Of a stretch of 47,886 bases of DNA, positions 698-42,360 are shown one piece after another. Position numbers and translations under genes: made by a program. The stretch's first letter is position 1. The number at the start of each line of letters is the position of its first letter. The DNA is from a virus. Its lineage: Duplodnaviria > Heunggongvirae > Uroviricota > Caudoviricetes. The notes under the pieces were generated by a model. That model saw only the letters and a list, made by a program, of their open reading frames with translations, searched no databases and was not told the origin of the DNA. The stretch lies in IMG/VR virus record IMGVR_UViG_2563366951_000006; one strand, written 5' to 3'.

Positions 698-1060
698 GGG
701 GCTGATTCTGGATTCGACGGGATTTGCGAAACCCAAGGTGCATGCCGAGGGGCGGTTGGCCTCGTAAAAAGCCGCAAAAAATAGTCGCAAACGACGAAAA
801 CTACGCTTTAGCAGCTTAATAACCTGCTTAGAGCCCTCTCTCCCTAGCCTCCGCTCTTAGGACGGGGATCAAGAGAGGTCAAACCCAAAAGAGATCGCGT
901 GGAAGCCCTGCCTGGGGTTGAAGCGTTAAAACTTAATCAGGCTAGTTTGTTAGTGGCGTGTCCGTCCGCAGCTGGCAAGCGAATGTAAAGACTGACTAAG
1001 CATGTAGTACCGAGGATGTAGGAATTTCGGACGCGGGTTCAACTCCCGCCAGCTCCACCA
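698..1060 (+). ncRNA. ssrA: tmRNA (SsrA), 363 nt
   Basis: Starts GGGGCTGATTCTGGATTCGACGGG; internal tag-peptide frame ANDENYALAA-stop at about 787..819; tRNA-like 3' end GGGTTCAACTCCCGCCAGCTCCACCA. Confidence 0.95.
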
Positions 1061-30778: not shown

Positions 30779-30853
<75 letters not shown>

Positions 30854-30856
30854 ATA

Positions 30857-30932
<76 letters not shown>

Positions 30933-30934
30933 AG

Positions 30935-31008
30935 TGGTCCGCCACCGGAGCCTCGAACCCCGTACCACAACACCTGGGTTGCCGCTCTTCCCGATGAGCT
31001 AGTGGCGG
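30935..31008 (-). tRNA. tRNA-like gene with non-canonical anticodon arm (anticodon unassigned)
   Basis: Perfect acceptor (CCGCCAC/GTGGCGG), D and T arms; best anticodon-arm fold is GCAAC/GTTGT around a 6-nt loop CCAGGT. Confidence 0.5.
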
Positions 31009-31010
31009 TC

Positions 31011-31087
31011 TGGTGGCCCTTGCTGGACTTGAACCAGCGACCGGGCGATTATGAGTCGCACGCTCTAACCAACTGAGCTAAAGGGCC
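31011..31087 (-). tRNA. tRNA with CAT anticodon, Ile2-like (lysidine) or Met
   Basis: Manual fold: anticodon loop CTCATAA; resembles enterobacterial ileX as I recall it. Confidence 0.75.
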
Positions 31088-36524: not shown

Positions 36525-36770
36525 TCACACCTCAGAACCGCTCTTGAAAACCAACTGTTCTTTTGTAATAACTGGCTTATTCACGAATGACTTTGATGCG
36601 CTCTCGATCGCCAATGCCAGTCTGGGGGAAGCATTGCGATGACCATAAGCAATGAGATTCAGGTATCCCGGAGATGTGCCTGATTTTTTAGCAAGATCTG
36701 CCCACTGCTCTTTTGTTGAGCACTTACGCCAAGCAAGTAATTGGTTGTTCATTACGGTCTCCTGTTGCAA
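36525..36770 (-). CDS. Cro-like HTH DNA-binding protein
   Basis: 81 aa; divergent from the cI-like repressor across an operator-containing intergenic region. Confidence 0.6.
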   Translation of the reverse strand: MQQETVMNNQLLAWRKCSTKEQWADLAKKSGTSPGYLNLIAYGHRNASPRLALAIESASKSFVNKPVITKEQLVFKSGSEV

Positions 36771-36863
36771 TGAATCAACTTTAGCTTTTTGCTAAATTAA
36801 ATGCAATAATCATTTAGCAGTTTGTGTATTTACCACATTGCTAAATAATGAGATTATTTTGAC
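36771..36863. promoter_or_regulatory. Right operator/promoter region between the cro-like and cI genes
   Basis: Three copies of the half-site TTGCTAAAT / ATTTAGCA at about 36790, 36813 and 36839. Confidence 0.55.
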
Positions 36864-37553
36864 ATGGACATAAAAAGCATACGCAAATCAAACCTTGAGC
36901 AGCTCATTGTTGAGTTCCTGAAGCGCGACAGACATACGACAAAAGCAGCTTTCGCAGAATTGTGCGGGATAAGCCCTGCCCAGTTGAGCCAGTTGCTTGG
37001 GGGCAATAGCCATCGAAACATAGGGGACAAAATGGCCAGAAAGATTGAACAGGCCTTGGATCGTCCGTTTGGGTGGCTGGATAGTCCACACAATGCTCCT
37101 GGCAGTATTAAAAGCGAGTTGGAGTATGTCGGATCAGTCCGTCCGGGAGCTGTACCAGTTGTAGGGGAAGCGATTCTTGGGATTGACGGAATGATCGATA
37201 TGCTAGAGATCCACGCTGGATGGCTACAAATATACAGCGCGGATAGGGATGCCTATGGGCTGAAAGTGAAGGGAGACAGCATGTGGCCACGCATACAGTC
37301 TGGAGAATATGTCGTCATAGAGCCAAACACCCAAGTTCATACAGGTGATGAGGTTTTTGTGCGAACAAAAGATGGGCATAACATGATAAAAATCATGAGT
37401 AAAACTCGCGATGGCGATTATCAATTCTCAAGTGTAAACAGTGATCACAGGCCCATCACCTTAAGTCCTGATAGCATCGAGAAAATGCATTTTGTTTCAG
37501 CTATTGTTAAGCATACGCGTTATGTTGACAATGATGAAATGCCCGCCCTGTAA
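36864..37553 (+). CDS. cI: Prophage repressor, CI-like (HTH + S24 LexA-type peptidase)
   Basis: N-terminal HTH (TKAAFAELCGISPAQLSQLL); C-terminal S24 motifs (KVKGDSMWP ... EVFVRTKDGHNMIKIM). Confidence 0.9.
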   Translation: MDIKSIRKSNLEQLIVEFLKRDRHTTKAAFAELCGISPAQLSQLLGGNSHRNIGDKMARKIEQALDRPFGWLDSPHNAPGSIKSELEYVGSVRPGAVPVVGEAILGIDGMIDMLEIHAGWLQIYSADRDAYGLKVKGDSMWPRIQSGEYVVIEPNTQVHTGDEVFVRTKDGHNMIKIMSKTRDGDYQFSSVNSDHRPITLSPDSIEKMHFVSAIVKHTRYVDNDEMPAL

Positions 37554-37659
37554 ACCCCATCTTTATCCCCCTCCAACCGACCTGATGGTCGGTTTTTTTA
37601 TGCCCACCGAAGAATAATAATAAATAATTATATTATTTATCAAATACATAAAAGAAAAA

Positions 37660-37715
37660 GTAAATAATTTAGCATTTATCATTTGCATGGCTTTTACCAT
37701 TTTGCTAAATTCACT
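37660..37715. promoter_or_regulatory. Left operator/promoter region downstream of cI
   Basis: Same half-site as an inverted pair: aatttagca at 37666 and ttgctaaat at 37702. Confidence 0.45.
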
Positions 37716-37742: not shown

Positions 37743-37955
37743 ATGAATGTAGAGCAAATGCTTTCCGAGAACGGAACTGTCCACAAAATTGCGATGGATA
37801 TTGATCGTGTAATCAATGCGCTTGAGTACGCAGAATCAGATCCAGGTGTTGCATATAAACCAGCGGCACTCATTAAAATTTGTATCAATCAGTTAAGGGA
37901 TAATCTTTCTGTTCTAAACCATGAACTTGGTTATGATTGGCCGGAGAATAAATAA
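37743..37955 (+). CDS. Hypothetical early protein
   Basis: Start taken at ATG 37743 with GGAG 8 nt upstream (track ORF begins at 37683). Confidence 0.4.
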   Translation: MNVEQMLSENGTVHKIAMDIDRVINALEYAESDPGVAYKPAALIKICINQLRDNLSVLNHELGYDWPENK

Positions 37956-38378
37956 ATGAAAACTCCATTAGACATGCTTCATGATATCGTCGCTCAGATT
38001 TCCGAAGGCAATACTCTTCTGGAAATGATTTATAGAAACACCGAAGAAATGAACGAGGAAACTGATTGCGGCTTAGCCTGCCTCATTCGCTCTTTCGATA
38101 AAACCCGTGAAACAGCTTACGCATACATCGAAGAGTTAGCAAATACTGCAAAGACAGTTAACCCCCCCCCCATCGGGAATAGAGATGATATTGCCGATGA
38201 TATTTTTTATGCCACAGTCAGCGCTGCAAAACTCAGGGAACTGGCTCACGTATATAACGAATCATATTTTTCAGGAAAAGACAGTGATGACGCTGATTGC
38301 CTGATGGCATCACTTATTTTCGATAATACCATTAAGGTACATGAATTACTGAAAAGCATCGAAATAAAATTAAATTAA
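37956..38378 (+). CDS. Hypothetical early protein containing a C10 homopolymer tract
   Basis: 140-aa ORF; ten consecutive C at 38162..38171 encoding NPPPIG. Confidence 0.5.
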   Translation: MKTPLDMLHDIVAQISEGNTLLEMIYRNTEEMNEETDCGLACLIRSFDKTRETAYAYIEELANTAKTVNPPPIGNRDDIADDIFYATVSAAKLRELAHVYNESYFSGKDSDDADCLMASLIFDNTIKVHELLKSIEIKLN

Positions 38379-38447: not shown

Positions 38448-39107
38448 ATGAACCAATCTGAAATAGATAGTCTTCTTGAATCAAAAGTTTCGCGGCGTAG
38501 GCATTTAAAAAGCCTGGAGTATGGTGTTGGTCATTATGACGTAGAATTCCCCAGCACTATTATCATCGACGGAATAATGTGCCACCACAGCGCTCACCGT
38601 CGTTGGAGCGGCATGTTATCTCGCTGCTACAAACCGCACACAGAACAGTTAGAGCACAGTTACGCCGGATGTACTGTTGCCGATGAGTGGCTGCGATTCT
38701 CAAACTTTCTGGCGTTCTGGAAAGAAAACTATCGCGATGGATATGTGCTAGATAAGGACCTGCTACACCCTGGTAACAAGATATATGGTCCTGAATACTG
38801 CGTATTTGTTCCCCCAGCACTTAACTTATTTACAGGTGATCGCGCCCGTTTACGAGGGAAATACCCACAGGGTGTTATCTGGCATAAACAGTCCGCTAAG
38901 TTTCGGGCACGAATCAACGTAAACGGAAAGATTTCACACCTTGGGCTTTTCAACACCACACAGGAAGCCCACTTAGCCTGGCACACAGCCAAGATGCAAC
39001 AGGCTAAGGACTGGAAGCCCACATGTGATGAGATTCACCCACTACTACATGCAGGCCTGATGAAAAAAATAGCGGGAATGCAACAGCGATTTACTCAACC
39101 ACGTTAA
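38448..39107 (+). CDS. Hypothetical early protein, possible AP2-like DNA-binding domain
   Basis: GVIWHKQSAKFRARINVNGKISHLGLFNTTQEAHLAWHTA resembles the AP2/HNH-associated pattern. Confidence 0.5.
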   Translation: MNQSEIDSLLESKVSRRRHLKSLEYGVGHYDVEFPSTIIIDGIMCHHSAHRRWSGMLSRCYKPHTEQLEHSYAGCTVADEWLRFSNFLAFWKENYRDGYVLDKDLLHPGNKIYGPEYCVFVPPALNLFTGDRARLRGKYPQGVIWHKQSAKFRARINVNGKISHLGLFNTTQEAHLAWHTAKMQQAKDWKPTCDEIHPLLHAGLMKKIAGMQQRFTQPR

Positions 39108-39447: not shown

Positions 39448-39796
39448 AACCTACCGCCGCCGAATTTTAAAGGCAGCGTTATTACGCCACCAGCGTAAAA
39501 CGGGCAGTAACTGCCTTGTTATTAAGCTCAATAAAGGCGGTATTAACACGGTCGAGTTAACAGAGATTCTTCTCGATGGATTATTACGAAAATTCGAAAG
39601 GCTCGCGATCAGTGAGTACGGAAATGTCGAAGGTGTAAAAGCTATTAAGGGGATTTACAGCAGCTCTGTTGATGTTAATGGCAGCGGTGAATTCCTCACA
39701 AATAGCGGAAAGGAATTAATCGACGAGCTCATTTCTGAGCTGGTTGAGTTCGTCAAAAAGCAGAAACCAGTTAATGCGGAGATCGGCAATGGCTGA
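39428..39796 (+). CDS. Hypothetical protein
   Basis: Frame of track ORF 39377..39796; start taken at GTG 39428 overlapping the upstream stop. Confidence 0.35.
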   Translation: MKNNVIETYRRRILKAALLRHQRKTGSNCLVIKLNKGGINTVELTEILLDGLLRKFERLAISEYGNVEGVKAIKGIYSSSVDVNGSGEFLTNSGKELIDELISELVEFVKKQKPVNAEIGNG

Positions 39797-40043
39797 CCAA
39801 CAAACAATGCTCTATCAGGGTGTGCTGATCCCCCGCCCCGTGTTGAACGTGGATCTGCATGTCCTCCCTGATTTTACCGGGCGGGTAGTCCTGCACATCG
39901 AGAACGGGAGGGTGATATGCGACCGCCGGTTGTTCGACGACGAGCACATTTGCTCACTGGCCACATTTATCGAAATGGCGCGCGAAATGGAGCTGAGATT
40001 TGAGGAGGTAGCTGGTGGCACTTACAGCGATACGAATTCCTGA
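39792..40043 (+). CDS. Hypothetical protein
   Basis: Start at internal ATG (MADQQTMLYQG...) of track ORF 39744..40043. Confidence 0.4.
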   Translation, partial: ADQQTMLYQGVLIPRPVLNVDLHVLPDFTGRVVLHIENGRVICDRRLFDDEHICSLATFIEMAREMELRFEEVAGGTYSDTNS

Positions 40044-41034: not shown

Positions 41035-41233
41035 TTGCGTACCACTTTCAACCTACTGCCGGGACGCCGGAGAAACGGTTGAAGCCGTTAACAAACGGAT
41101 ACAAAGGGGGTTATGGAAAGAGGGTGTCCATGTATTAAAAGTCGATGGCGTTAAAGAACGCTGGATAGACTTAACGGAGGTTTCAAAGTGGGCAAGAAAG
41201 AACAAGGATCATTATCTCTCCCAAGAGGAGTAA
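41024..41233 (+). CDS. xis: Excisionase (Xis-like)
   Basis: ATG at 41024 with RBS gggagg; 69-aa basic protein overlapping the int start by 46 bp, as in lambda xis-int. Confidence 0.55.
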   Translation: MSLDCVPLSTYCRDAGETVEAVNKRIQRGLWKEGVHVLKVDGVKERWIDLTEVSKWARKNKDHYLSQEE

Positions 41234-42360
41234 CCATTCGCCAGCATAAAACTGGCGACACCCTGGTGATCACATTCACCTACAAGGGGGTTCTCTGCCG
41301 GGAGCCCCTTTCCAGAATGGAAGCAAACGCGCGCGGCGTGAAGTATGCCGAGCGCCTGCTGGGGGAGATACAGAATCAGATCGCCGGCGGCACATTCGAT
41401 TATGCGAAATACTTCCCCACCTCCAAAAAACTGGAGCTGTTCGGGGTAGTGAAGAAAACCAAAAATATTAAGTCCTACCTGGACGAGTATCTGAAAATCT
41501 GCCAGAACCGCAACCTTTCGCCGTCCACTATTGGCGGTTATGAAAAGTGCCTGTCTGCGCTATCTGCGCTGCACAAAATGCATGTATCGGAACTGACCCC
41601 TGCGGTCCTCAAAAACTGGATCGCCAGCAGAAAAACAAAGCTGAAAACAATCAGGAATAACCTCTCGTTTCTGCGCAGCGCCATAGATGAAGCGGTGACA
41701 GACGGCCTGCTGACTATCAACCCGGTAACCCTTGTCAGCGCGAGTCGGTACCACGTGATCGACAGCAGCCCGAATAGTGACGATTACGAAGTTGATCCGT
41801 TCACACCAGCGGAAATCAGCGCCATTTACCAGAGCTGCAGTTATCCGGAATGGGAAAACCTGTTCCGTTTCGCATTCAATACAGGTTTACGCAGCTCTGA
41901 GCTGTGTGCGTTGCGCTGGCCTGATCTCGACAATATCGCTAAAACAGCTCACGTTCAGGCGGCGAGTGTTGTTGGCGTTCTGAAAGGCACCAAAACAAAA
42001 GCCGGTACCCGTAAAGTAGAATTAAACAGCGAGGCGCTGGCCGCGCTGCAGGCGCAGAAACAATTCACTTTCATGAAAAGCGAGTTTATTTTCAGCGACC
42101 CTAAAACGGGAGAGCCCTGGGCGAACGCCGACGCAATACGAAAAAAAGCATGGGTGCCAACCCTCAAAAAAGCTGGCGTTCGATACCGTAACCCGTACCA
42201 GACCCGCCACACATTCGCCACCAGACACATTAGCCAGGGCGTAAACCTTTTCTGGCTTGCCGGGCAGATGGGGCATAAAGGGCCGGAAATGCTGTTCCGC
42301 AATTACGGTAAATACCTGGCTGAATACGACGGGAAAACCGCCATTTCAGCAGCTCTGTAG
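41188..42360 (+). CDS. int: Tyrosine integrase (prophage)
   Basis: 390 aa; C-terminal catalytic region with RHTFATRHISQG...HKGPEMLFRNYGKY (R-H-R-Y signature); adjacent to attR. Confidence 0.9.
   Translation: MGKKEQGSLSLPRGVTIRQHKTGDTLVITFTYKGVLCREPLSRMEANARGVKYAERLLGEIQNQIAGGTFDYAKYFPTSKKLELFGVVKKTKNIKSYLDEYLKICQNRNLSPSTIGGYEKCLSALSALHKMHVSELTPAVLKNWIASRKTKLKTIRNNLSFLRSAIDEAVTDGLLTINPVTLVSASRYHVIDSSPNSDDYEVDPFTPAEISAIYQSCSYPEWENLFRFAFNTGLRSSELCALRWPDLDNIAKTAHVQAASVVGVLKGTKTKAGTRKVELNSEALAALQAQKQFTFMKSEFIFSDPKTGEPWANADAIRKKAWVPTLKKAGVRYRNPYQTRHTFATRHISQGVNLFWLAGQMGHKGPEMLFRNYGKYLAEYDGKTAISAAL

Follow-up and report, generated by a model that had tools for sequence, protein, structure and literature searches.

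A few bacterial pathogens provide the classic examples of homopolymer contingency loci. To our knowledge, the Enterobacteriaceae rarely use homopolymer phase variation, and in phages the reports are limited to those on Campylobacter phages and, very recently, on T-even and other virulent phages. The bacterial examples of homopolymer phase variation, in Neisseria, Haemophilus, Campylobacter and Bordetella (e.g. PMC5084427, PMC1891110), concern chromosomal genes, mostly with surface or restriction-modification functions that are expressed in the cell. The polyG tracts of Fletchervirus, which are Campylobacter phages, are described as hypermutable (Sorensen et al. 2021, Cell Rep 35:109214, as cited in PMC10877375 and PMC12633550). 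As these citing papers present them, the phages are virulent, the tracts of 7-11 nt lie within ORFs at several places per genome and in receptor-binding proteins, changes in tract length shift the frame and create subpopulations, and the host itself has pervasive polyG phase variation. The contingency loci of T2 agt and T4 rIIA (Gomez, Barrick & Waters 2025 preprint, PMC12633550) are runs of 6-9 A residues in virulent phages, for which both switching rate and phenotype were measured. The homopolymer frameshifts of T2 and T4 are reversible and revert about 1,000 to 10,000 times more often than point mutation; phage contingency loci are read there as a bet-hedge against defence systems, and regulatory and hypothetical genes contain more of them than expected (PMC12633550).

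The tract described here is a run of ten C residues in a temperate lambdoid prophage of Enterobacteriaceae. It resembles the Fletchervirus tracts, as far as the citing papers describe them, in that long G/C homopolymers lie within phage ORFs, several per genome, and in that length changes shift the frame. However, the tracts of the present phages are found in small immediate-early genes beside the immunity region. With T2 agt and T4 rIIA it shares the position of a homopolymer inside a phage ORF, but the runs here are of C or G, 7-14 nt long, conserved across genera in prophages and known from sequence comparison. The likeness to bacterial contingency loci consists of poly-C/G in coding regions, multiple independent loci ('phasotypes') and slipped-strand ON/OFF switching, which is here proposed; in contrast to those loci, the gene is carried by a phage, and in the lysogen it is probably silent. 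Systems of this kind are known; what is new, on the present comparisons, is a member in temperate phages of enterobacteria, where, unexpectedly, several tracts occur together.

The window, that is, the whole stretch of 47,886 nucleotides that was analysed, consists of E. coli chromosome with a prophage of about 41 kb inserted at ssrA. The tmRNA gene is located at 698..1060 and the integrase gene at 41188..42360, and the right flank is identical to ssrA-adjacent DNA from other E. coli. The prophage also carries a tRNA cluster (30779..31087) of four tRNA genes (Gly-tcc, Thr-tgt, Met-cat), one of which, at 30935..31008, is given an odd two-base anticodon by ARAGORN. The C10 tract occupies positions 38162..38171 (plus strand) within the ORF at 37956..38378 (plus strand, 140 amino acid residues, here called ORF140), as stated in a first-pass annotation of this DNA. 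The ORF reads '...TVNPPPIGNRDD...' around the tract, which provides the third base of the AAC codon of Asn69 and the three CCC codons of Pro70 to Pro72. This is the only long tract of the window and its longest homopolymer; the next-longest C or G run has 7 residues. About 0.04 C runs of 10 or more would be expected in the window under a first-order Markov model of its sequence, and CCC is the least used proline codon, with 16% of the proline codons in the long ORFs of the window. The tract appears kept or over-represented beyond chance and codon usage, with the caveat that the loci compared are homologous and hence non-independent.

The gene lies next to the immunity region of the prophage. 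A CI-like repressor with HTH_3 and Peptidase_S24 domains (36864..37553, plus strand) is divergent from the gene of a Cro-like HTH regulator (36525..36770, minus strand). A strong intrinsic terminator located 3' of the repressor gene (37575..37594, plus strand) divides the repressor transcript from the early-left operon. The palindrome TTTAGC-N5-GCTAAA is found at 36780 and 36829, in the cro-repressor interval, and again at 37693..37709 as TTTACCATTTTGCTAAA, an operator-like site (putative OL) located 5' of the early-left genes. There are seven matches to this palindrome, with 2.4 expected, and these three are the best. Because the repressor, the terminator and then the matching operator-like site precede it, ORF140 would be the second gene in a repressor-controlled early-left operon; the 'early-left' label of the first-pass annotation fits this position. 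Upstream of ORF140 is an ORF of 70 residues (37743..37955, plus strand), for which no family match was found. Its TAA stop codon abuts the ATG of ORF140 (TAAATG), so that the two are probably translationally coupled partners. In five of five annotated relatives the ORF140 homologue lies on the same strand, 1-3 genes downstream of the repressor. The next early-left gene (38448..39107, 219 residues) matches the PHROG 'HNH endonuclease' family phrog_953 (E = 2e-80), while its product in Pfam has only a weak match to the AP2 DNA-binding domain, under the curated cut-off. In a close relative (L009:2611) a non-coding C9 run is found between the repressor stop codon and the terminator; the counterpart of this run in the window, at about 37566..37573, reads CCCCCTCC.

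The AlphaFold model of ORF140 has a mean pLDDT of 79 and consists of two helical hairpins, at residues 4-67 and 79-139, with a disordered linker between them at residues 68-76. The N-terminal domain (residues 1-67, 37956..38156, plus strand) contains the helices 4-28 and 34-67. The linker (38157..38183, plus strand), with pLDDT below 50, holds the tract, and the C-terminal domain spans residues 79-140 (38190..38375, plus strand). In the family alignment the linker is the sole region of variable length, and its sequence is variable too. According to the model, the linker between the hairpins would be a place that tolerates gain or loss of proline. All PHROG matches of the protein are to families of unknown function; the match to phrog_27579 extends over the whole protein, that to phrog_6882 (63 positions) over the N-terminal part only. 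No match was found in Pfam or NCBIfam, and nothing significant was obtained with a sequence profile against the PDB or with Foldseek on PDB and BFVD. A PADLOC match to Lit was dismissed as weak (E = 0.02). In E. coli VREC0864 (L003:3350-3775) and in the proteins P0048, P0053, P0062 and P0063, the N-terminal domain is joined at the linker to an unrelated C-terminal domain. This suggests domain shuffling at the tract site. In a relative of 196 residues (P0037), the upstream small ORF is fused with the ORF140 homologue.

The reading frame of the second domain is set by the length of the tract. Alleles with 7, 10 or 13 C residues encode both domains in full, joined by a PP, PPP or PPPP linker, and only with these in-frame tracts is the C-terminal domain translated. 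Alleles with 8 or 11 C residues meet a TAG stop codon in the third frame (38180..38182, plus strand), which yields products of 74-75 residues ending in ...NPP(P)HRE. Alleles with 6, 9 or 12 C residues continue through an alternative-frame stretch (38185..38304, plus strand) and yield products of 114-116 residues, which carry an out-of-frame tail of 43 residues and end in ...EKTVMTLIA. The N-terminal domain is predicted from the sequence to be produced regardless of tract length.

The first-pass annotation had suggested that the gene could be phase-variable, to be checked by a comparison of tract length across related genomes, and that an invariant length would speak against it. Among complete E. 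coli genomes the gene is present in only three. In EC2001 the tract is C8, and the frameshifted gene is annotated as a CDS of 74 residues; in MS 115-1 it is C7, in frame, with a product of 139 residues. Over the rest of the gene both copies are 100% identical to the window, so that C10, C8 and C7 occur in copies that differ in the tract alone. A protein search gave 65 clusters, chiefly from Enterobacter, Citrobacter, E. coli and Klebsiella, and many of them have products of 74-77 or 114-116 residues in which the frame is lost exactly at the proline run. For the allele lineage of the window, contigs were counted by exact-sequence look-ups of the predicted products, the tract lengths being inferred from these products. 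The full-length forms were found on 134 contigs (C10, 140 residues), 63 contigs (C7, 139 residues) and three contigs (C13, 141 residues). The short products occur on 97 contigs (C8, 74 residues) and 32 contigs (C11, 75 residues), and those with the out-of-frame tail on 45 (C9, 115 residues), two (C12, 116 residues) and one (C6, 114 residues). In total about 200 contigs are in frame and about 177 are out of frame. In a sister lineage C9 was found on 173 contigs, C8 on 89 and C7 on 25. The loci and the contig counts are phylogenetically non-independent, and duplicate deposits are possible. The tract lengths were directly confirmed in the DNA of 67 IMG/VR loci, 2 genome loci and 5 metagenome loci. 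As to other searches for homologues, tblastn gave 5 phages, a scan of one genome per species gave 2 loci only, and megablast against the phage collection gave no match. Far from being invariant, the tract ranges from C6 to C13 on hundreds of contigs and from C5 to C14 in diverged homologues; at the population level, this length polymorphism among relatives supports the suggestion of phase variation.

The tract is also present across deep divergence of the family. A C run of 4 or more is present at the homologous linker in 55 of 60 loci, and its length is 5-14 nt except for one interrupted C4; one locus has G9. Pure-C tracts of 5-14 nt occupy the same linker in homologues down to about 47% identity, with C14 in a diverged lineage, and uninterrupted C8-C14 tracts are found there in at least 8 lineages with different flanks. 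Decay of the tract is observed as well: it is interrupted in two loci (L015, L057) and absent in others (L040 to L049). In the phage locus L041 (L041:3203, IMG/VR UViG_2718218027_000003) an out-of-frame G9 replaces the C run at the linker. One of the homologues belongs to OM284015.1, 'Elizabethkingia phage EKP1' (L004/L075, 26344..26764), where a C7 out-of-frame allele is annotated as two overlapping hypothetical CDS; the immunity region of this phage is of enterobacterial type, and the stated Elizabethkingia host looks doubtful.

Tract length is the fastest-changing character of the region. Two relatives with C12 and C11 (L030 and L051) have 0 mismatches in 2.4 kb. Five near-identical prophages differ at 7 SNP columns in about 5.2 kb, and their sole indel sites are two poly-C tracts: the ORF140 tract has 11, 12 or 14 residues, the second tract has 8, 9 or 10, and the two vary independently. 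These comparisons imply that the rate of indels at the tracts is at least about 1,000-fold that of substitutions per site. An excess of about 1,000-fold is of the same order as in phage contingency loci (PMC12633550).

Further tracts of this kind are present in the neighbouring early genes. About six other homologous sites in related prophages also bear C/G runs of at least 8, whose length varies from 8 to 13 nt. Those in phrog_340 genes lie close to the N- or C-terminus; a phrog_4439 gene in the rightward operon has one at a GGG site, and another is a G run that joins two small ORFs. Examples are L030:4361, L030:1358, L018:4195, L047:3739 and L033:4168, with homologous places in many of the loci L013-L074. 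A census of G/C runs was made over the 10-kb flanks of the related phage loci, 1.0 Mb in total. Of 112 runs of 8 or more, 108 fall within -3 to +2 kb of ORF140, and 4 are found in the remaining roughly 680 kb. Such runs are about 50-fold concentrated around the immunity region with respect to the rest of the same phages. In the window, the phrog_340 gene at 39792..40043 contains at 39829..39838 (plus strand) the sequence CCCCCGCCCC, which encodes I-P-R-P, where the relatives have an uninterrupted run of C6 to C13 that encodes I-P-P-P. This looks like a second tract that has been stabilised by a C-to-G interruption.

The reading that we prefer, with a probability of roughly 0.7, is that C10 is a slipped-strand switch of the contingency type, which toggles a two-domain early protein and is kept by second-order selection. 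Several features known for contingency loci are found here: an uninterrupted SSR, in this case a homopolymer of at least about 7, in an ORF, length polymorphism in near-identical copies, frame switching with the remainder of the gene intact, and the retention of the tract. With regard to phage contingency loci, what is observed is an SSR of at least 6 in a phage ORF, with indel variants between genomes. In the proposed mechanism, slippage of the polymerase would add or remove C residues in the tract. A given phage genome would then specify the full protein (C7, C10, C13), the N-terminal domain alone (C8, C11) or this domain with an out-of-frame tail (C6, C9, C12). Since the gene is repressor-controlled, it is probably silent in the lysogen; tract length could drift freely there and would be sorted only upon induction or infection. 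A lysate or lineage that always has both states would be hedged against hosts that differ in whether the full protein is of benefit or does harm, for example in defence versus counter-defence, and second-order selection for this hedge would retain the tracts. We infer that the bet-hedging is adaptive from the retention of the tract, the convergent G run, the clustering in immediate-early genes and the precedent of the described systems.

The main rival to this switch is a neutral mutational hotspot, which we consider rather unlikely. It would consist of a slippery CCC-coded linker in a dispensable gene silent in the lysogen, in which frameshifts accumulate and drift with no adaptive switching. 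Much of the allele distribution is compatible with this. Of the 50 loci whose tract has at least 7 residues, 25 are in frame and 25 out of frame, and among distinct alleles the in-frame fraction is 11 of 27, which does not differ from one third. In-frame enrichment (p = 0.016 for loci, 0.42 for distinct alleles) was considered too weak as evidence of selection and is not relied on. The sister lineage is mainly out of frame (the C9 and C8 contigs given above), the gene lies behind a repressor-controlled promoter, and the tract has been lost or interrupted in some lineages. Other frameshifts in the family occur at T runs. One is in P0027; the other is in Klebsiella phage ST16-OXA48phi5.3 (L005:2501-2907), whose distant homologue has no C tract, is annotated as a truncated CDS and is apparently frameshifted at a T8 run in the C-terminal domain.

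Several observations speak against the neutral hotspot. The C-terminal domain of 63 codons, from the DIADD motif to the stop codon, is intact in 60 of 60 loci, all out-of-frame alleles included. In comparison of the window with deep lineages, identity at third codon positions is 0.38-0.48, while at first and second positions it is 0.68-0.77. Because third-position identity is so far below that of the other positions, the comparison indicates purifying selection on the C-terminal domain of a real protein over deep divergence. The pure-C tracts have persisted, although synonymous sites are near saturation and CCC is a minority codon, and the G9 of L041 stands at the same linker. In addition, the concentration of G/C runs in immediate-early genes would not be expected from a neutral process acting genome-wide.

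A second alternative, which we regard as very improbable, is programmed recoding. In this case slippage of the RNA polymerase, or a ribosomal +1 or -1 shift at CCC-C during a poly-proline stall, would produce all frames, and the genomic length of the tract would be immaterial. Known recoding systems such as dnaX and IS elements likewise have a homopolymer at a domain boundary, with a common N-terminus and differing C-termini. A run with the length of the RNA:DNA hybrid can slip and leave no mismatch. PPP motifs stall ribosomes, and CCC-C is a site prone to +1 shifts. In E. coli, frameshifts at G and C repeats can be phenotypically bypassed (PMC3812077), which would make such recoding possible. 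However, in E. coli the insertions made during transcription occur mainly at runs of A or T (PMC5574713), which speaks against slippage of the polymerase at C runs.

The sequence around the tract argues against recoding in three respects. Recoding sites are characterised by a fixed motif and a conserved second frame, and usually also by a conserved stimulator; none of the three was found here. The slippery motif differs in length even between near-identical copies, and its overall range is 5 to 14. The alternative frame stays open over 40-60 codons, as expected from the main-frame protein, and the remaining frame stops after 2-6 codons. In 15 lineages the openness of the alternative frame does not exceed that under synonymous resampling (p = 0.06-0.55), and the main frame, through its conserved DD and CLM codons, accounts for the ATG codons and the TGA stop of the alternative one. 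Dual coding of the 115-residue product was rejected on this basis, and the stretch at 38185..38304 is probably a by-product rather than a selected coding frame. As to the stimulator, an RNA hairpin (CAUCGG...CCGAUG) is predicted at 38171..38200 and begins at the last C of the tract; the 86-nt segment that contains it has a folding energy of -15.7 kcal/mol (z = -2.7), which taken alone would favour recoding in the lineage of the window. This fold is limited to the closest lineages (A-C), while 11 other lineages are without a comparable one, and a conserved stimulatory hairpin was rejected for this reason. The possibility that poly-C serves as a Rho-binding (rut) element was also rejected, several sister tracts being poly-G on the sense strand (T6-T10, L041).

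Homopolymers are error-prone on several sequencing platforms, and a single difference of one residue, such as the C8 of EC2001, could be a read error; but the view of the first-pass annotation that a sequencing or assembly artefact is equally possible can be set aside, together with a constant true length, since C10 is repeated on 134 contigs and in two IMG/VR loci (L006, L007) from independent assemblies, C7 and C8 are frequent (63 and 97 contigs), 2-3 nt away from C10 and recurrent across sources, in a manner unlike the scatter of one-residue read errors, and lengths from 6 to 14 appear across independent collections.

The contingency-type switch may also be one of a set. We tentatively propose that a widespread group of temperate lambdoid phages, with hosts in Enterobacter, Klebsiella, Citrobacter and E. 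coli, carries a multi-locus 'phasome', although this wider scheme is given less confidence than the single switch and is somewhat short of an even chance. Its several conserved, long poly-C/G tracts would be confined to small immediate-early genes that flank the immunity region, and they would vary independently and give combinatorial ON/OFF mixtures in each induced burst. The C10 tract would be one such switch, and the interrupted site at 39829..39838 a locked one. The early accessory proteins of this proposed set are possibly counter-defence or host-takeover factors.

The comparisons place the same device in temperate prophages of clinically important Enterobacteriaceae; it is conserved in more than one genus, with a concentration in the genes that are the first to be expressed upon induction. 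Annotation pipelines split or truncate genes of this type, and the results appear as 'hypothetical proteins' of 74 or 115 residues or as the N-terminal-only family phrog_6882. The length of the tract could serve as a fast marker within outbreak clones. If the variation is adaptive, temperate phages would hedge their early accessory repertoire against variable host defences, and the proteins of phrog_27579, phrog_340 and phrog_4439 would be candidates for functions under antagonistic selection.
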